Below, piece after piece: positions 3,562-61,089 of a DNA stretch of 64,000 nt. A model generated the notes under the pieces. The model ran no database searches. It was not told the origin of the DNA and saw only the letters and a list, made by a program, of their open reading frames with translations. The stretch lies in sequence record PP359696.1. The stretch is one strand, 5' to 3'. Source of the stretch: Escherichia phage Ge15. The translations under genes were made by a program, and so were the position numbers. Numbering within the stretch: position 1 is the first letter of the stretch; each line of letters begins with the position of its first letter.

Positions 3562-4258
<697 letters not shown>

Positions 4259-4330: not shown

Positions 4331-4588
4331 ATGAAAACTTTCAAAGAGTTTGCTACAAAAACTACTATCACTGAATCTTCCCACGGTATGGAAGTAAAGC
4401 TTGGAATGGCTTTAGCTGAAGCTGAGCGTCTTTTCTCTCGTATTAAAGAACTTGCTGCTGCAGTCGATCCTTCATCTTTTAAAGGAGACCAAACTAAAGT
4501 TAAAGCACTTTTAGCATTATGCTCAGATGCAGGAGAAATTGCTAAAAATGGTTCTAAGATGAAGAAACGATTAGAAGATTTAAAATAA
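4331..4588 (+). CDS. internal-protein-like small protein with capsid-targeting-like N-terminus (IPI locus)
   Basis: 85-aa ORF starting MKTFKEFATKTTITE, in the position of T4 ipI next to 57B. Confidence 0.6.
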   Translation: MKTFKEFATKTTITESSHGMEVKLGMALAEAERLFSRIKELAAAVDPSSFKGDQTKVKALLALCSDAGEIAKNGSKMKKRLEDLK

Positions 4589-4591
4589 TTT

Positions 4592-4645
4592 CACAAAGTT
4601 GTTTACACAGGGTTTTAGTAGTGATACTATTACTCTATCAAAACA
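4592..4645 (+). promoter_or_regulatory. early promoter / stem-loop cassette (second copy)
   Basis: Near-identical TTCACAAAGTTGTTTACA ... GTGATACTATTAC core as at 4262. Confidence 0.55.
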
Positions 4646-4664
4646 AAACCAAATGGAAATCAAA

Positions 4665-4898
4665 ATGAAAACTTTCAAAGAGTTTATCGCTGAATCTTCT
4701 GATGTAAAAGTTGAGTTTATTTACACCGGCAAGAAAGATAAAATGGGTGAAATGCCTCATGGAGTTCTTCGTGATGCATTAGATAATTTCGGTCAACTCG
4801 CCGCAGAAGATTACGGTGATAAAATTGTTGTTACTGGTCCTGCTGCAGTTATTGAAAAATGGGCAGCAGAAAATAAATCAATTTTTCGTAAAAAATAA
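4665..4898 (+). CDS. internal-protein-like small protein with capsid targeting sequence
   Basis: 77-aa ORF from ATG 4665, N-terminus MKTFKEFIAE matches the T4 internal-protein CTS consensus. Confidence 0.6.
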   Translation: MKTFKEFIAESSDVKVEFIYTGKKDKMGEMPHGVLRDALDNFGQLAAEDYGDKIVVTGPAAVIEKWAAENKSIFRKK

Positions 4899-8254: not shown

Positions 8255-8728
8255 ATGAAATCATATGCTCAATTTTTAAATGAAGCGGTGTTAAATGAAG
8301 CATCTAGCACCGAAATTCAAGCTGTCGCAAAAGCTGCCATTGCCGCGGGTAAATATTCCTATAAAGATGCTTCCGATGAATCACGATTCCAATTTGCTCG
8401 TGATATGAAAGCCGAAGGATTTACAGGGAATGCAGTTAGTATGGCTTGGAAAAGTTTAGTTGCTACTGGAGCTGCTTTTGCAAAGGCTTCAGGTAAACCT
8501 GCTCCTAAGGCTGACCCTAAAGCAGCACAAGAGAAAAATATTGTTAAAGGAATTATCTCCAAATATGAAGCTATCCTTAAAGAGCTTTTAGTAATCAAAA
8601 CTGAAGGCCAAAAACTAGCTCGTGCTTATAGTTTCAAAGATAACCCACATGCTCACTCTCTTGAGTATGTTGAAGACATTCAAAAAATTATTAAAGACCG
8701 CATTTGGTCTGCTAAACAAATCAAATAA
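8255..8728 (+). CDS. internal-protein-like late protein with capsid targeting sequence
   Basis: 157-aa ORF, N-terminus MKSYAQFLNEAVLNEA resembles the internal-protein CTS with L-x-E cleavage sites; late promoter upstream; terminators on both sides. Confidence 0.6.
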   Translation: MKSYAQFLNEAVLNEASSTEIQAVAKAAIAAGKYSYKDASDESRFQFARDMKAEGFTGNAVSMAWKSLVATGAAFAKASGKPAPKADPKAAQEKNIVKGIISKYEAILKELLVIKTEGQKLARAYSFKDNPHAHSLEYVEDIQKIIKDRIWSAKQIK

Positions 8729-12581: not shown

Positions 12582-13112
<531 letters not shown>

Positions 13113-13116
13113 AGTT

Positions 13117-13146
13117 GTTTACTTTCTCCTAGAACTGTGATAGTAT
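13117..13146 (+). promoter_or_regulatory. early promoter with stem-loop
   Basis: GTTTAC, 18-nt spacer, TAGTAT; inverted repeat ACTGTGA/TCACAGT brackets the -10. Confidence 0.5.
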
Positions 13147-13171
13147 ATTCACAGTTACTTGGAGGGATAAA

Positions 13172-13588
13172 ATGACTCGTATTAATTTGACTTTAGTATC
13201 TGAACTTGCTGATCAGCATTTAATCGCAGAATACCGTGAATTGCCACGTGTTTTTGGTATAGTTCGTAAACACGTGGCAAATGGTAAGCGGGTTAAAGAT
13301 TTTAAAATATCTTCCGAGTTTATTTTAGGTTCTGGTCATGTTACGTTCTTTTACGATAAGTTAGAATTTTTGCGAAAGCGTCAATCAGACATTATAACGG
13401 AATGCTTAAAACGTGGGTTTAGTATAAAAGATACTGAAGTTCCTGACATCAGTGATATTCCAGCAGAATGGAAAAATGATTATAATCCATGCAAATCAGC
13501 TATTAAATTGAGTCAACAACGACTCGATGAAAAAATTTTAATGAAGCCACACTGGTACAAGTATTACGGCAAAAATATTTACATTTAA
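13172..13588 (+). CDS. denV: endonuclease V (pyrimidine dimer DNA glycosylase) DenV
   Basis: 138-aa [32 protein letters not shown]..., recognised as T4 endonuclease V. Confidence 0.95.
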
Positions 13589-13597
13589 AGGAAACAT

Positions 13598-13915
13598 ATG
13601 AAAACGTATAAAGAATTTATTGCAGAATCTGCCGCAGGACAACGTGTAGAAGGCGGTTATATTTGGATTGAAGAAGTTGAGCCACCTAGTCGTACTTCTA
13701 CTGGTAAATGGAAAATTACTGTCGATGGTCCTGGCGGAAAACGCAGAACTTTAAAAGAAATTAATGGATATTATAGTGAAGCTCTTTCAGACGCGGGCAC
13801 TTATATGATGCAAATTATGATTAAAAATCCAGAAAATCGTTTTGCAGCTAGAGTTTTCCGCCGCATTGGAAATAAACTTTACGATGCATATTCTAAAAAT
13901 TTTCCTAAAGCATAA
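13598..13915 (+). CDS. internal protein (IPII-like) with capsid targeting sequence
   Basis: 105-aa ORF with N-terminus MKTYKEFIAE, the canonical T4 CTS. Confidence 0.7.
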   Translation: MKTYKEFIAESAAGQRVEGGYIWIEEVEPPSRTSTGKWKITVDGPGGKRRTLKEINGYYSEALSDAGTYMMQIMIKNPENRFAARVFRRIGNKLYDAYSKNFPKA

Positions 13916-13931
13916 AAATTAAAGGAAACAT

Positions 13932-14405
13932 ATGAAAACATATCAAGAATTTATTACTGAAGCAGCTATTAATTCTCAAATTATTGCTGAATCTTTTACT
14001 GATCTTTTGAAATTTAAAAAAGGTCAAAAAATCACTGCTGTATTGGATGATGGTACAGAAGTTGAGATGGATGTACAGGGATATAATTATGCAGTAGATG
14101 GAAAACTGTATAATAAATCTCATGCTAAATTTGATTCATTTGACGACTTTGTTAATACAGTTGAAGATGAAAAAACTCGTAGATCCATTGCAACTGGTGA
14201 TGCTAAGGTTCTTATGGCACACGGCCATGAACGCATTCGCGCTAAGCAGAATAAAATGGGCGAAGATAATTTCGCATTAGTTGGTTATCAATCTGGTAAA
14301 CAAACTTATGGTTATCAGCGTACTGCTACCATGTATAACAAAAATGGTAAAATCGCTTTCGTGAATAGTAAAGGTTCTGTTCAGTACGTTAAATCGTTCA
14401 AATAA
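13932..14405 (+). CDS. internal protein (IPIII-like) with capsid targeting sequence
   Basis: 157-aa ORF with N-terminus MKTYQEFITE; shares upstream AAAGGAAACATATG element with the preceding gene. Confidence 0.7.
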   Translation: MKTYQEFITEAAINSQIIAESFTDLLKFKKGQKITAVLDDGTEVEMDVQGYNYAVDGKLYNKSHAKFDSFDDFVNTVEDEKTRRSIATGDAKVLMAHGHERIRAKQNKMGEDNFALVGYQSGKQTYGYQRTATMYNKNGKIAFVNSKGSVQYVKSFK

Positions 14406-18809: not shown

Positions 18810-18982
18810 ATGATGATTTAAAATATCAATTATTACGTGAACTTGATGTTTTGATTGAACTTTCTGCACAAAAAGGATTTATAATTGGATCGGGTCAAAA
18901 AGACCCCAACGGTCATTCAATCGTAGCGGTTATGAATCAGAAACGAGTCATTTTAAAACTTTTGGGGATTGACATACTGTGA
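18806..18982 (+). CDS. hypothetical small protein
   Basis: 58-aa ORF (below track cutoff) from ATG 18806, coupled to neighbours. Confidence 0.4.
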   Translation: MNDDLKYQLLRELDVLIELSAQKGFIIGSGQKDPNGHSIVAVMNQKRVILKLLGIDIL

Positions 18983-19164
18983 GCCTAAGCAAAGAACAAA
19001 AAGATAAATTGTTTGAGCTTATCCATGAACTTCTAGATGAGCATGCAGAAGCAAACACCTTTTATGATGAATACGGCCCGCTATCTCCCGAACAGCAGGA
19101 AGAATTTGCTGATCGGTTTGATAAGAAAGAAAATGAATTAATAGCTTATGTGAATACGCTTTAA
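18979..19164 (+). CDS. hypothetical acidic small protein
   Basis: 61-aa ORF, GTG start overlapping upstream stop. Confidence 0.45.
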   Translation: MSLSKEQKDKLFELIHELLDEHAEANTFYDEYGPLSPEQQEEFADRFDKKENELIAYVNTL

Positions 19165-57125: not shown

Positions 57126-57308
57126 ATGGAATTGGTAAAGGTAGTTTTTATGGGGTGGTTTAAGAATGAAAGCATGTTTACTAAAGAAATCACAATGATG
57201 AAAGATGACGTTCAATGGGCTACTACTCAATATGCTGAAGTTAATAAAGCATTAGTTAAAGCTTTCATTGATGACAAGAAAGTGTGCGAAGTGGATTGCC
57301 GAGGATAA
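57126..57308 (+). CDS. dmd: Dmd (inhibitor of RnlA/LsoA toxins)
   Basis: 60-aa ORF immediately downstream of gene 41; T4 Dmd size and position. Confidence 0.85.
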   Translation: MELVKVVFMGWFKNESMFTKEITMMKDDVQWATTQYAEVNKALVKAFIDDKKVCEVDCRG

Positions 57309-57309
57309 T

Positions 57310-57567
57310 ATGCATATTGTTTTATTTAAACCTACTCCGTATAACGTCAGGAAAAATACTCAATTCAAAGCACTTATTGCAGATACGTGGGAATTGGTGT
57401 TAGATATTCCAGCAGAAGAAAGTCCTCCATTTGGTCGAGTGGAATTTATTAAGTTTGCTGTACGTCCTACGAAGAGGCAGATTCGTCAGTATAAAAGGTA
57501 TTTTCGTAAAATCGTTAAGCTAGAGAAACATTTTGTAACATGTGATTACGCAGAAGTTTTAAAATAA
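57310..57567 (+). CDS. gp61.4-like protein (position of the ToxN-inhibitor tifA locus, as I recall it)
   Basis: 85-aa ORF from ATG 57310 (RBS GAGGATAA) between dmd and sp. Confidence 0.5.
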   Translation: MHIVLFKPTPYNVRKNTQFKALIADTWELVLDIPAEESPPFGRVEFIKFAVRPTKRQIRQYKRYFRKIVKLEKHFVTCDYAEVLK

Positions 57568-57627: not shown

Positions 57628-57921
57628 ATGAAAAAATTTATCTTTGCTACAATTTTTGCTTTAGCTTCTTGTGCTGCTCAGCCTGCTATGGCAGGTTATG
57701 ATAAAGATTTGTGCGAATGGTCTATGACTGCTGATCAGACTGAGGTTGAAACTCAAATTGAAGCGGATATTATGAATATTGTTGAGCGCGATCGTCCTGA
57801 AATGAAAGCTGAAGTGCAAAAACAGCTTAAGTCTGGTGGTGTAATGCAGTATAATTATGTTCTGTATTGCGATAAAAACTTTAATAACAAAAATATCATC
57901 GCTGAAGTGGTAGGTGAATAA
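57628..57921 (+). CDS. sp: spackle periplasmic protein Sp
   Basis: 97-aa ORF with signal peptide MKKFIFATIFALASCAAQPAMA; T4 Sp size and position. Confidence 0.85.
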   Translation: MKKFIFATIFALASCAAQPAMAGYDKDLCEWSMTADQTEVETQIEADIMNIVERDRPEMKAEVQKQLKSGGVMQYNYVLYCDKNFNNKNIIAEVVGE

Positions 57922-58547
57922 TGCTTTATCAAATGCACAAGTGCAAAGATACATACAAATATAAAGGTGCCCAGTGTTATATCATTAATCGTGAAAACGC
58001 GGGTCCAGGTCATTCGCATCAATCACGGTTTGTATTCGTTAAAAACAATGAAATTATAGCAGTTGCTAATTACATGCTTGTGACTAATGATGTTAATCCG
58101 GTGCCTTTTACATATTATAATCTAATGGATTTGGCGTACGATTATAATTGGTTTAATCATGACACTTTGGCTCATATCGAAGGCGTAGGATTTGACATCT
58201 CTTATTCTAGTTACTCGTTGTGTCCTATGAGCCGAGCTCATAAAGAGCCTGAATATTTTTCATTTCGTCGGCGTGTAGACTTTAAACGCAGTACAGAGTA
58301 TGTCGGTGGAATATTTGTTAAAGATAATCGAATTACTCGCATTATTTATCCTTTGGGCTGTGGTCAAAAAGATATTGATGTTGATTTAGACTTTACTGAA
58401 AACATCATTAATCATATTGCTTCTGTGTATTTTGATATTGATCACAAAATTGTGATATGTGGATATGAATTACCATCAGAAAAACAGTCTAAAGTAAATG
58501 TTTCTATTGATGACCAAATTTTTAATGCTTTTATGAATAAAGGTTAA
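57921..58547 (+). CDS. gp61.2-like protein (position of the anti-DarTG factor adfA, as I recall it)
   Basis: 208-aa ORF after sp; C-terminus SIDDQIFNAFMNKG repeated in the next gene. Confidence 0.55.
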   Translation: MLYQMHKCKDTYKYKGAQCYIINRENAGPGHSHQSRFVFVKNNEIIAVANYMLVTNDVNPVPFTYYNLMDLAYDYNWFNHDTLAHIEGVGFDISYSSYSLCPMSRAHKEPEYFSFRRRVDFKRSTEYVGGIFVKDNRITRIIYPLGCGQKDIDVDLDFTENIINHIASVYFDIDHKIVICGYELPSEKQSKVNVSIDDQIFNAFMNKG

Positions 58548-58551
58548 TATG
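58503..58551 (+). repeat. 49-bp direct repeat copy 1 (gene 3' end plus next-gene start junction)
   Basis: TCTATTGATGACCAAATTTTTAATGCTTTTATGAATA[A/G]AGGTTAATATG occurs at 58503 and again at 58861 with one mismatch. Confidence 0.85.
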
Positions 58552-58905
58552 TATAGTTCTGAATTTTCATATTTAAAAATGGAAAAAATTTCATACGATT
58601 TTATAGATGAAAAGGTTTATTACAGTTTCCATGAACCACGTTTTAATAGTGAGGTTGGGTTTATTGTAGTAAAAGACAATTTCATTTTAAAGATATATTC
58701 AGCATTAAAGGATTTTCACTACGAAAATATTAACCTAAAATTTGATAAAGAAAACGTTCGTAATTGTGCAGTAACAATTACAGGAAATAAAGGCACATGT
58801 GTTATGCTATCTGATGAAATTAATGATTTGCTAAATGATGCCGAAAAGGTTGCTATTCCATCTATTGATGACCAAATTTTTAATGCTTTTATGAATAGAG
58901 GTTAA
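58549..58905 (+). CDS. gp61.1-like hypothetical protein
   Basis: 118-aa ORF ending SIDDQIFNAFMNRG. Confidence 0.55.
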   Translation: MYSSEFSYLKMEKISYDFIDEKVYYSFHEPRFNSEVGFIVVKDNFILKIYSALKDFHYENINLKFDKENVRNCAVTITGNKGTCVMLSDEINDLLNDAEKVAIPSIDDQIFNAFMNRG

Positions 58906-58909
58906 TATG
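58861..58909 (+). repeat. 49-bp direct repeat copy 2
   Basis: Second copy of the junction repeat, 358 bp downstream of the first. Confidence 0.85.
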
Positions 58910-59071
58910 AAAACATATAAAGAATTTATTAAAGAAGATATGGTAGCTGGAGATTCAGGTGGTAATCCTGAAAATATCTCTACTGGAACAACGTCAGGTG
59001 CTGTAGTAAATAAAGGTCCTGAACAGATTCCTAAAAAGAAAAAAGAGGAATCTAAAGAAAAAGAAGAGTAA
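58907..59071 (+). CDS. mini-protein with capsid-targeting-like N-terminus
   Basis: 54-aa ORF (below track cutoff), MKTYKEFIKEDMVAG..., Lys/Glu-rich tail, immediately upstream of primase. Confidence 0.45.
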   Translation: MKTYKEFIKEDMVAGDSGGNPENISTGTTSGAVVNKGPEQIPKKKKEESKEKEE

Positions 59072-59073
59072 AA

Positions 59074-60102
59074 ATGTCATCAATACCTTGGATTGATAAT
59101 GAGTTTGCATACCGTGCATTGGCTCATTTACCTAAATTCGCACAAGTAAATAATAGTTCAACTTTTAAATTACGGTTTAGATGCCCTGTTTGTGGAGATT
59201 CAAAAACCGACCAAAATAAAGCCCGTGGATGGTATTATGGTGATAATAATGAAGGAAATATTCATTGTTATAACTGTAACTATCATGCACCAATCGGAAT
59301 ATATTTAAAGGAGTTTGAACCTGATTTATATCGTGAGTATATCTTTGAAATAAGAAAAGAAAAAGGTAAAAGTCGTCCAGTAGAAAAACCTAAAGAACTT
59401 CCTAAACAACCCGAGAAGAAAATAATTAAATCTCTTCCGTCATGTGTTAGATTAGATAAACTGACGGAAGACCATCCAATTATAAAATACATAAAAGCTC
59501 GCTGTATTCCAAAGGATAAATGGAAATATCTTTGGTTTACAACTGAATGGCCTAAATTAGTTAATAGCATAGCGCCGGGAACATATAAAAAGGAAATACC
59601 TGAGCCTCGTCTTGTTATTCCAATTTATAATGCTAATGGAAAAGCTGAGTCGTTTCAAGGACGTGCATTAAAGAAAGATGCTCCTCAAAAATATATCACC
59701 ATCAAAGCTTATCCTGAAGCAACAAAAATCTATGGAGTCGAACGGGTTAAAGATGGTGATGTATATGTTCTAGAAGGACCTATAGATTCACTTTTTATTG
59801 AAAATGGTATAGCTATTACGGGTGGTCAATTAGACCTAGAAGTTGTTCCATTTAAAGATAGACGCGTGTGGGTTTTAGATAATGAACCTCGTCACCCTGA
59901 CACTATTAAGCGAATGACTAAATTAGTTGATGCAGGAGAAAGGGTTATGTTTTGGGACAAATCTCCCTGGAAATCAAAAGATGTTAATGATATGATTAGA
60001 AAGGAAGGTGCAACCCCTGAACAAATTATGGAATATATGAAAAATAATATTGCGCAGGGGTTGATGGCTAAAATGCGGCTATCTAAATATGCTAAGATTT
60101 AA
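59074..60102 (+). CDS. 61: DNA primase gp61
   Basis: 342-aa ORF with zinc ribbon CPVCGDS...CYNC and TOPRIM region; T4 gp61 size. Confidence 0.93.
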   Translation: MSSIPWIDNEFAYRALAHLPKFAQVNNSSTFKLRFRCPVCGDSKTDQNKARGWYYGDNNEGNIHCYNCNYHAPIGIYLKEFEPDLYREYIFEIRKEKGKSRPVEKPKELPKQPEKKIIKSLPSCVRLDKLTEDHPIIKYIKARCIPKDKWKYLWFTTEWPKLVNSIAPGTYKKEIPEPRLVIPIYNANGKAESFQGRALKKDAPQKYITIKAYPEATKIYGVERVKDGDVYVLEGPIDSLFIENGIAITGGQLDLEVVPFKDRRVWVLDNEPRHPDTIKRMTKLVDAGERVMFWDKSPWKSKDVNDMIRKEGATPEQIMEYMKNNIAQGLMAKMRLSKYAKI

Positions 60103-60299
60103 ATTAACCCAACTAAAGCAAATGCTAAATCTACGAATGTATCAAGAGTAATTACTGGAATATTAACACCATGAGCAATAGCAATTGGTGATAAAACAAA
60201 ATTCCAGAGTAAAATTCCTACCATAGCAGAAATAGTAAAAGCTATACGTTTTTTATTACCTTTTATGGCATTAACAAGTGCCATTAATTTTTGTACCAT
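60099..60299 (-). CDS. small membrane protein on the opposite strand
   Basis: 66-aa minus-strand ORF with strong SD (AAGGAGGA then ATG) and two hydrophobic segments, in the 61-56 intergenic space. Confidence 0.45.
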   Translation of the reverse strand: MVQKLMALVNAIKGNKKRIAFTISAMVGILLWNFVLSPIAIAHGVNIPVITLDTFVDLAFALVGLI

Positions 60300-60370
60300 A
60301 TGTCCTCCTTATTGCTTTATATATTTATTGTATAATTAATCTACTAACCCATGAATTGAAAGGAAAAATA

Positions 60371-60889
60371 ATGGCATACTTTAATGAATGTTCACAACTG
60401 ATCGAAGGCGCTGATAAAGCTCAAAATGAATACTGGGATATTCTCGGTGATGAAAAAGACCCACTACAGGTTATGCTTGATATGCAGAAATCTTTGCAGG
60501 TTCGTTTAGCTAAAGATAAACCTGAATATAACCGTCATCCTGATGATTTGGCTACTGCAGGCGAAGTTGTTGATTGGCTGCGTAATCAAAAAGATTATAT
60601 TGACGATGAATTCCGTGAACTTCTGACTTCTCTTGGCGGCATGAGCAATGGTGAAAAAGATGCATCTGCTGTATGGAAGCCTTGGAAAGCTCAACATGGT
60701 GAACGCCGTGAAACTCTAATTACTGATTTGTCTCCGCAAGATCAGTTGGAAATTAAATTCGAAATGATTGATATTCTTCATTTCGTTCTGAACATGTTCC
60801 AAGGTCTTGGTCTTACGGCTGAAGAAATCTTTAAACTTTATTATCTGAAAAATGCTGAAAACTTCGCTCGTCAAGACCGAGGTTATTGA
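60371..60889 (+). CDS. 56: dCTPase/dUTPase gp56
   Basis: 172-aa ORF from ATG 60371, MAYFNECSQLIEGADKAQNEYWDILG...; recognised as T4 gp56. Confidence 0.9.
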   Translation: MAYFNECSQLIEGADKAQNEYWDILGDEKDPLQVMLDMQKSLQVRLAKDKPEYNRHPDDLATAGEVVDWLRNQKDYIDDEFRELLTSLGGMSNGEKDASAVWKPWKAQHGERRETLITDLSPQDQLEIKFEMIDILHFVLNMFQGLGLTAEEIFKLYYLKNAENFARQDRGY

Positions 60890-61089
60890 TGGCTCGTTTA
60901 AATAAACGCCAGCTTAAGAAAGCCCGCAAGAAACGTATTGACCAGCTATTTAAAAATTATGATAAGGAGCTCGTATGTGAGCTCTTATCTAATCAGCTTC
61001 GTGTGGTTGATTGGGTTGTAGAAGAAGGTCCTGATGAAATTTTTGTCAGCGAAGAAGCCTTAAAATTAATTATAGAACATTCAAAATGA
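60886..61089 (+). CDS. hypothetical basic protein
   Basis: 67-aa ORF coupled to gene 56. Confidence 0.5.
   Translation: MMARLNKRQLKKARKKRIDQLFKNYDKELVCELLSNQLRVVDWVVEEGPDEIFVSEEALKLIIEHSK

Follow-up and report, generated by a model that had tools for sequence, protein, structure and literature searches.

Gene 61.1 of Escherichia phage Ge15 (PP359696.1; the whole 64,000-nucleotide stretch that was analyzed is called the window below) encodes a 54-residue protein, gp61.1, which on pairwise and profile comparison is homologous without gaps to residues 55-100 of gp23, the major capsid protein. Its first ten residues resemble the capsid-targeting sequence (CTS) of the T4 internal proteins (IPs) and end in a putative site for the prohead protease gp21. 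The homology to gp23 is the new point of this analysis. The new content as a whole is the anatomy of gp61.1, that is, a CTS, a gp21 site, a copy of the gp23 N-fist and a Lys-rich tail, together with its evolutionary history. The best explanation of this anatomy is that gp61.1 may be drawn into the prohead core and cut there by gp21, leaving a 44-residue peptide. This reading is held tentatively, with a likelihood that appears to fall just short of even.

Homology to gp23 and the CTS-like N-terminus

The preliminary description of this DNA placed an open reading frame (ORF) starting MKTYKEFIKE at exactly 58907-59071 on the + strand, and the ORF list and the sequence both confirm it. The same description called the ORF unannotated, which was mistaken. 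It is T4 gene 61.1 (NP_049649.1, T4 18966-19130); 511 phage records matched, and among the matches listed a hypothetical-protein coding sequence (CDS) lies under the match. The window belongs to a Tequatrovirus whose closest record is Escherichia phage PinkRuby (99.4%), and the product, MKTYKEFIKEDMVAGDSGGNPENISTGTTSGAVVNKGPEQIPKKKKEESKEKEE, differs from that of T4 at two of 54 residues. The short-form profile phrog_1823 matches this product over residues 1-54 (E 7e-34) and the long-form profile phrog_2086 matches its C-terminal module (E 2.6e-16). Pfam and NCBIfam scans of the 54-residue protein gave no match, even at permissive E-values (Pfam E<=1). Functional-genomics tables of 2025 still list 61.1 as unknown, and certain records label it 'major capsid protein' or 'major capsid domain-containing protein', which is why it was compared with gp23. 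The gene is divided as follows.

58907..59071, + strand: gene 61.1 CDS, 54 codons and stop, from the ORF list and the sequence; orthologue of T4 61.1
58907..58936, + strand: residues 1-10, MKTYKEFIKE, CTS-like propeptide with an I-K-E end and putative gp21 cleavage after Glu10
58937..59020, + strand: residues 11-38, DMVAGDSGGNPENISTGTTSGAVVNKGP, homologue of gp23* 66-93 (N-fist 66-91 and the start of the N-arm)
59021..59068, + strand: residues 39-54, EQIPKKKKEESKEKEE, variable tail rich in Lys, with an indel hotspot in the A-run at 59033-59044

In BLASTP, residues 2-38 of gp61.1 align ungapped with gp23 57-93 at 43% identity (E 1e-8), and gp23 is also the best match of the 54-residue protein in a phmmer search of the whole PDB (E 0.0085). 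Residues 1-135 of T4 gp23 match phrog_1823 (E 4.8e-10) and phrog_2086 (E 5.9e-8), with the latter match extending back to gp23 residue 40. When profiles are compared by hhalign, residues 1-45 of the short forms align with gp23 55-100 at a probability of 97.1%, and residues 99-146 of the long forms align with gp23 53-102 at 97.8% (E-values of 6e-11 and 7e-13, respectively). Local alignment of seven gp61.1 proteins with seven gp23 N-termini gave scores of 64-112 in all 49 pairings. The gp23 of the same phage was not consistently the best partner in this comparison, the gp23 N-fist being too conserved. The gp61.1 module carries an insertion in Acj61 and XZ1, and the gp23 of Acj61, the only one of these two compared, lacks it.

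The register of the alignment places residues 1-10 of gp61.1 on gp23 56-65 (AQAFGSFLTE). Specifically, FIKE|D falls on FLTE65|A66, and Glu10|Asp11 thus corresponds to Glu65|Ala66, the gp21 maturation site. The Glu is placed on Glu65 in six of the seven printed alignments between gp61.1 and the gp23 of the same phage. Downstream of this site, gp23* 66-91 is the N-fist, a 25-residue feature peculiar to T4-type capsid proteins, which touches four subunits and helps to form the Soc site (PMC7136217, PMC9958956). In the unexpanded head, gp23 66-105 is disordered, points inward and is thought to contact the scaffolding core, and it shifts outwards upon expansion (PMC9546572). Because this segment lies inside the head and probably contacts the core, a free copy in the form of gp61.1 could plausibly use the same contacts. 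The HK97-fold capsid body, with its A, P and I domains and about 520 residues, was not found in gp61.1, which has 54 residues and aligns only with gp23 55-100. The capsid-protein names given in some records are therefore misleading. The preliminary description had noted a Gly/Ser stretch followed by a Lys/Glu-rich tail. As a statement of composition this was correct, but the stretch is a homologue of the gp23 N-fist and not a linker.

A six-frame scan of the 64-kb window with the pattern M-K-[TS]-[YF]-x-[EDQ]-[FVLIM] gave exactly six ORFs, at 4331, 4665, 8255, 13598, 13932 and 58907, all on the + strand and without further matches. The six CTS-like ORFs described earlier are thus the complete set. 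With a signature frequency of about 4e-5 per start codon, a rough estimate from typical residue frequencies that was not computed, the common N-terminal signature is not a product of chance. The resemblance to the internal proteins noticed at first sight was likewise borne out. MKTYKEFIKE is identical to the CTS of T4 IPII and IPIII, MKTYQEFIAE, at 8 of 10 positions, differing at positions 5 and 9, and Y4, F7, I8 and E10 are all kept. In amber-suppression experiments, most of the information for targeting was traced to CTS residues 4 and 7, and that for processing to residues 8 and 10 (PMC9026906). In IPIII, E10D reportedly prevents processing and leaves targeting intact. The first 10 residues of IPIII suffice for incorporation (PMC9026906), and according to reviews the CTS brings foreign proteins into the head (PMC9026906, PMC9958956). 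The gp21 motif (L/I)-x-E, found at the propeptide end, is matched by I8-K9-E10, and judged by its sequence the N-terminus of gp61.1 can be counted as a CTS bearing an I-x-E site for gp21. Since A66D of gp23 is a characterized head-length mutation (PMC9546572) and such mutants are assumed to be viable, gp21 probably accepts Asp at P1'. Recombination with an IP gene was also considered. The first 24 nucleotides of 61.1 match those of ORFs 13598 and 13932 at 23/24 positions, which was not taken as evidence, since the codon bias of T4 is by itself enough to predict this degree of identity where the peptides are identical.

The gp61.1 family, its two architectures and its tail

The preliminary description made its proposal depend on evidence of translation and on conservation of the ORF in related phages, and this conservation is strong. 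Relatives were found by tblastn in 1,493 phage records, including phages of Klebsiella, Aeromonas, Acinetobacter and Vibrio, with residues 8-42 as the conserved part. A word-index protein search with the 54-residue query returned only 17 close relatives, and the wider family was collected by tblastn, through the long form and by profile search. This family spans the Straboviridae. A profile search of 1.84 billion representative proteins yielded only 50 clusters, all of 50-251 residues, indicating that the family is small and phage-restricted. Within a 27-codon core, the proportion of synonymous differences (pS) between genera is 0.45-0.90, which is saturated, and that of nonsynonymous differences (pN) is 0.08-0.30; for the window and T4 the values are 0.14 and 0.02. 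The ratio of nonsynonymous to synonymous rates (dN/dS) of the core is about 0.1-0.3 in most estimable pairs and reaches at most 0.47. Invariant columns number 18 across 15 short forms and 12 across 35 long forms. Gene 61.1 is a real protein-coding gene under purifying selection.

Two architectures are present in the family. Short forms of 51-62 residues are found in Tequatrovirus, Gaprivervirus, a Klebsiella phage, Krischvirus and Tulanevirus. Long forms of 149-162 residues (phrog_2086) are found in Mosigvirus, Karamvirus, Slopekvirus and in Acinetobacter, Aeromonas and KVP40-type Vibrio phages. The long-form genes lie as follows in the loci extracted.

L005:1198-1665, L007:1177-1641, L008:1144-1632, L010:1183-1662, L011:1168-1647, L013:1204-1653: long-form gp61.1 genes

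In the RB69 reference record, the long-form gene is split into two ORFs. The N-domain of the long forms comprises about 105 residues, is helical and conserved, and carries the motifs YAY+FI+LMQK.F.EW.A and KRP.T.EEK.AYTPFH. It is common to phrog_18642 and extends to Sinorhizobium phage phiM12 and to Pseudomonas and Methylophilales phages, and among the sampled hits no homologue of it occurs in T4-type (Tequatrovirus) phages. A Foldseek search of this domain against the PDB found no relative (best E 3.4), and a Pfam scan gave sub-threshold noise only. The wide reach of the N-domain and the existence of two architectures suggest that the long form is probably ancestral and that the T-even phages probably swapped the domain of about 105 residues for a CTS of 10 residues.

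The junction ahead of the N-fist-like module is common to both architectures. The module runs from MVAGD to GP, with hydrophobic-x-Glu directly ahead of it in nearly all members, and MAFFT aligns the long-form junction QKEIFKELPLFE|DMVAGD with MKTYKEF-IKE|DMVAGD of the short form. A Glu stands 1-3 residues upstream of the core in 169 of 171 members. The strict form [LIVMFY]-x-E is found in 154 of them and hydrophobic-x-E|E in 10 more (together about 96%), and this element is kept even though the linker ahead of it is variable in both length and sequence. Many short forms that diverge from one another start with MK[TS]F.[ED][FL], for example P0141, P0144, P0154, P0160, P0161 and P0163. Two divergent short forms read E|AE[IV]SGD, which is still nearer to E|AEIGGD of gp23. 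In four metagenomic members (P0129, P0152, P0165 and P0170), a further CTS-like motif, M.E[VM]..FK[QA]F[VM]E, and then a domain of about 90 residues come after the basic tail, as if a downstream gene with a CTS-like start of its own had been fused on.

AlphaFold2 models the window protein with a confidence (pLDDT) of 61, with a short helix at residues 4-11 and the remainder predicted disordered. In the long form, the helical N-domain reaches a pLDDT of 83-89 (residues 11-60) and the module stays below 50. The predicted disorder of the module fits an arm that becomes ordered only upon binding a partner.

The tail of gp61.1 occurs in Tequatrovirus as two alleles that lie a 1-nt indel apart in the A-run, a 54-residue allele ending in KKKKEESKEKEE and a 62-residue, T6-type allele ending in KKKKRNLKKKKSKNVINTLD. 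In the +1 frame, the window encodes ...RNLKKKKSKNVINTLD*, the same tail as in the family member P0002 and exactly that of the T6-type allele. This T6-type frame extends over the initial 26 nt of primase gene 61 (region 59021-59100). Both frames yield Lys-rich tails, and basic tails of the KKRK type occur in other genera. Ribosomal frameshifting at the A-run was considered and rejected, since the run has only six A's and does not lie in a canonical X_XXY_YYZ register; fixed alleles that differ by a 1-nt indel account better for the two tails.

Genomic setting and neighbouring loci

The location reported at first, between anti-defense genes and primase, is correct, with dmd, sp and AdfA upstream of 61.1 and gene 61 downstream. 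The order in the window is dmd, 61.4, sp, 61.2, an extra ORF of 118 residues, 61.1 and 61, and the position of 61.1 next to the primase gene is the same in T4 and PinkRuby.

57126-57308: dmd, upstream of 61.1
57310-57567: 61.4, upstream of 61.1
57628-57921: sp, upstream of 61.1
57921-58547: 61.2/AdfA, upstream of 61.1, Anti-DarT factor AdfA (PF23813, E 1.7e-136)
58503-58551 and 58861..58909, + strand: direct repeat of 49 nt in two copies with 98% identity and a spacing of 358 nt
58549-58905, + strand: 118-residue ORF between 61.2 and 61.1; T4 is without this ORF
58898..58901, + strand: Shine-Dalgarno GAGG, read from the sequence, five bases before the 61.1 ATG
59074..60102, + strand: gene 61, DNA primase, 342 residues, from the ORF list and the annotation in PinkRuby and T4

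The GAGG lies within the final codons of the upstream ORF, which suggests that 61.1 is translationally coupled to it. The 61.1 stop ends at 59071, two bases ahead of the primase ATG at 59074, and the close spacing of ribosome-binding site, stop and primase ATG packs 61.1 tightly into the operon. In the loci of twelve phages, from T4 to KVP40-type phages, 61.1 stands directly before primase in 10 and close by in the rest. Two small ORFs separate it from primase in KP27 and in G37-3, and in phiM12, which was reached through the N-domain match, one ORF lies between the gene and primase.

The 118-residue ORF is paralogous to, and diverged from, the C-terminal half of AdfA (PF23813 E 2.3e-8; BLASTP 34%, E 4e-8; phrog_4122). 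The 49-nt repeat holds the last AdfA-type codons of the upstream ORF, a ribosome-binding site and the ATG of the next gene, which in the second copy is 61.1. Because the repeats bound a 358-bp cassette, this cassette can be gained or lost by recombination between them. Beyond the primase gene, between it and gene 56 (60102-60900), T4 dam is missing, as is segF downstream. In their place lies an ORF of 66 residues (60099-60299, - strand) with a hydrophobic sequence, which is hypothetical in PinkRuby.

The five other CTS-like ORFs are IP-like. At the IP loci (window 12618-14405), e and denV are followed by two CTS ORFs of 105 and 157 residues, and the T4 order is e, ipIII, ipII, denV. Two small CTS ORFs (4331-4898) follow an ORF of 151 residues at 3803-4258, which we take to be a 57B homologue. 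The fifth lies at 8255 (8255-8728), with a late-promoter core 44 nt upstream. In the N-terminal 22 residues, none of the five matches T4 IPII or IPIII beyond the CTS. ORF 4331 (MKTFKEFATK) is without the pair of hydrophobic residue 8 and Glu10, and its product may be cut later, at a candidate I-T-E15 site.

Possible roles of gp61.1 and comparison with known systems

In the preferred reading, the CTS would bring gp61.1 into the scaffolding core of the prohead along the route taken by IPI-III and Alt, while the long forms would enter the core through their N-domain instead. The prohead protease gp21 would then cut gp61.1 after Glu10. The cut protein would start at Asp11 and give the semi-tryptic peptide DMVAGDSGGNPENIS(T/I)GTTSGAVVNK. 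The remaining peptide of about 44 residues, made up of the N-fist-like segment and the Lys-rich tail, would stay inside the head, and the same peptide of about 44-50 residues would be left in every lineage. There it could rest on the shell or on the DNA, and it could leave together with the DNA on ejection. Its role would be accessory, because 61.1 is dispensable in the laboratory.

Confidence in this reading balances strong sequence logic, and the fact that a CTS works on arbitrary cargo, against the timing of expression and the missing detection. Several observations weigh against it. No TATAAATA late-promoter core is present on the coding strand within 39 kb upstream of 61.1, whereas such a core lies 44-1,467 nt upstream of each of the five IP-like ORFs. 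The T4 61.1 mRNA is classed early (PMC9697503, Table S2), and gp61.1 was not detected in the time-resolved infection proteome, in which 61.2, sp, 61.4 and dmd were (PMC9697503). The protein goes unmentioned in the T4 virion mass-spectrometry paper and its supplements, is not named as a head component in the texts searched, where the name appears only in gene tables, and near-atomic capsid maps contain no assignment of such a peptide. The tail of the 54-residue allele is K/E-mixed with a net charge of 0 and hence not basic, and the whole 44-residue peptide has a charge of about -2. Moreover, the comparison of seven gp61.1 with seven gp23 N-termini showed no co-variation between gp61.1 and the N-fist of its own gp23. 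Finally, CRISPRi-ART knock-down of 61.1 gave a score of -0.84 (p 0.93, 'Not Fit'; PMC11879866), and in transposon sequencing 13/13 TA sites of 61.1 were hit and the gene was non-essential (bioRxiv 2025.11.20.689424). Given this dispensability in two genome-wide screens, no phenotype supports any role of 61.1. With regard to timing, ipII, ipIII and gene 40 have 'early' transcripts yet 'late' proteins (PMC9697503, Table S2), and the head-assembly gene 40 lies within the same early cluster as 61.1. Since an early-made protein could persist, the absence of a late promoter lowers the likelihood of packaging into the head without excluding it. No paper on the CTS or the gp23 relationship of gp61.1 was found in the searched literature, which omits most subscription journals.

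A more specific proposal, which we consider improbable, is that gp61.1 is a trans-acting copy of the gp23 N-fist, conserved across the Straboviridae, that tunes capsid expansion, head length or shell stability. The gp21-freed peptide would dock on the N-fist binding surfaces of gp23 capsomers, with candidate docking sites near the gp24 vertices or the portal, where five D-subunit N-fists are disordered. Alternatively, it would compete with the gp23 arms for the scaffolding core, and its Lys-rich tail would contact DNA. If true, this would add a new class to the accessory factors of the capsid, in which a paralogue of a major-capsid-protein arm is made as a separate gene product, and it might bear on unassigned densities in T4 head maps. 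In the expanded head map of T4, unassigned helical densities lie under the gp24* P domains (PMC9546572), for which cleaved CTS-type propeptides, including that of gp61.1, are candidates.

Among the explanations that place gp61.1 outside the head, the one that deserves most attention, although it still seems unlikely, is an early cytoplasmic mimic of the gp23 N-terminal segment, acting in trans on GroEL-gp31 or on a host capsid sensor. The partner would be primed, titrated or blunted before gp23 is made, and the CTS-like start and the hydrophobic-x-Glu would be merely inherited. The early transcript class, the missing late promoter and the setting among early host-takeover and anti-defense genes (dmd, sp, AdfA) are as expected of such a protein, and the predicted disorder of the module suits a linear-motif mimic. 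The Gol peptide, which triggers Lit and corresponds to about gp23 93-122, comes directly after the region copied in gp61.1. A passage in PMC3012670, citing Snyder and Tarkowski 2005, reports that the gp23 N-terminus sends fusion proteins to GroEL, and gp23 triggers CmdTAC via a SecB-like chaperone (PMC11618068). However, a mimic that bound a sensor, CmdC for example, ought to set it off rather than block it. A near-universal hydrophobic-x-Glu in an otherwise variable linker is hard to explain without proteolysis, divergent short forms repeatedly have CTS-like starts of the type MK[TS]F.[ED][FL], and no conditional phenotype has been reported in T4 screens. The position of the gene points in a different direction, namely to primase and replication, with 61.1 as a coupled leader for gene 61 or its product as a basic primosome accessory, and the similarity to gp23 as a relic. 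The nearly fixed place before primase, the two-base gap to its ATG and the T6-type frame that runs into gene 61 agree with this, and a Lys/Arg-rich tail could bind nucleic acid. Such a link is nevertheless doubtful to a high degree, as it is the amino-acid sequence of the N-fist-like core that is under selection and not just its being translated, conservation lies in the gp23-like module while the tail varies freely and even changes frame, and ORFs intervene in KP27, G37-3 and phiM12. In addition, knock-down of and insertions in 61.1 had no fitness effect, while gene 61 itself was intermediate in the same transposon-sequencing screen, though 'Not Fit' in CRISPRi-ART.

In the reading taken from the preliminary description, gp61.1 would be an injected anti-defense effector like IPI*, packaged by its CTS and ejected with the DNA against a host nuclease or sensor. 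The CTS match is consistent with this, as are the anti-defense neighbors dmd and AdfA and the view of internal proteins as diverse defense proteins that share only the CTS (PMC3012670). Of the assignment to the internal-protein class, the CTS look-alike stands, but the hypervariability and the late promoter of that class are absent. Internal proteins are hypervariable and occupy plastic loci, whereas gp61.1 is one conserved Straboviridae family with early-only transcription, and its mature part would be a disordered capsid-arm homologue of 44 residues rather than a folded inhibitor. It was not flagged as conditionally essential in transposon-sequencing screens against defense systems and clinical isolates, and Pfam and NCBIfam match only its neighbors, through AdfA PF23813, to a known anti-defense family. 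Nothing beyond the neighborhood links gp61.1 to anti-defense, and injection as an effector is accordingly given little credence. An ORF without function, open by chance or left over from a decaying gene, would agree with its absence from the T4 infection proteome and its dispensability. This last explanation is close to refuted by the pattern of conservation, as cross-genus conservation with saturated synonymous sites and low dN, the invariant columns of both forms, the good ribosome-binding site and a family in 1,493 phage records all contradict it.

Overall, an anonymous ORF is turned into a concrete hypothesis by its CTS, by its copy of the N-fist and cleavage junction of gp23, by the retention of the junction motif in about 96% of members and by the probable swap of the N-domain. 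Packaging and cleavage of gp61.1, if true, would add a conserved member to the cargo of the T4 head and would mean that the CTS and the end of the gp23 propeptide are variants of one signal for core binding and cleavage. It would also make gp61.1 the smallest natural CTS cargo, which would be useful for the engineering of T4 head delivery. If packaging were refuted, gp61.1 would be an early-expressed mimic of a capsid segment, of interest for capsid-sensing defense systems.

In comparison with the known CTS-bearing proteins IPI-III and Alt, gp61.1 has a 10-residue CTS, MKTY(Q/K)EFI(A/K)E, with the same determinant residues and the I-x-E end. Like IPI-III, it is non-essential and small and has a Lys-rich part. 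Unlike the genes for IPI-III, which are hypervariable and sit in plastic loci, gp61.1 forms a single conserved family whose position is nearly fixed across the Straboviridae. IPI-III have a folded effector body, where gp61.1 has a 44-residue, predicted-disordered homologue of a capsid arm. The IP-like ORFs have late promoters, whereas 61.1 is without one and its mRNA is early, and gp61.1 is known from sequence and not from heads. With gp23 it shares 46-48 alignment columns that include the cleavage-site Glu, the motif GD.G....I..G.TSGAV...GP and the hydrophobic-x-Glu ahead of it. It has a tenth of the length of gp23 and is without the A, P and I domains of the HK97-fold body. After the GP motif, a Lys-rich tail follows in gp61.1 and the N-arm and Gol region in gp23, and in T4 about 86 kb separate gene 23 from 61.1, which belongs to the early replication cluster. 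The long-form gp61.1 of RB69/Mosigvirus, CC31, KP27, Acj61 and KVP40-type phages has the same module, hydrophobic-x-Glu junction, basic tail and position near primase, but it carries the helical N-domain of about 105 residues where the window phage and T4 have the 10-residue CTS.

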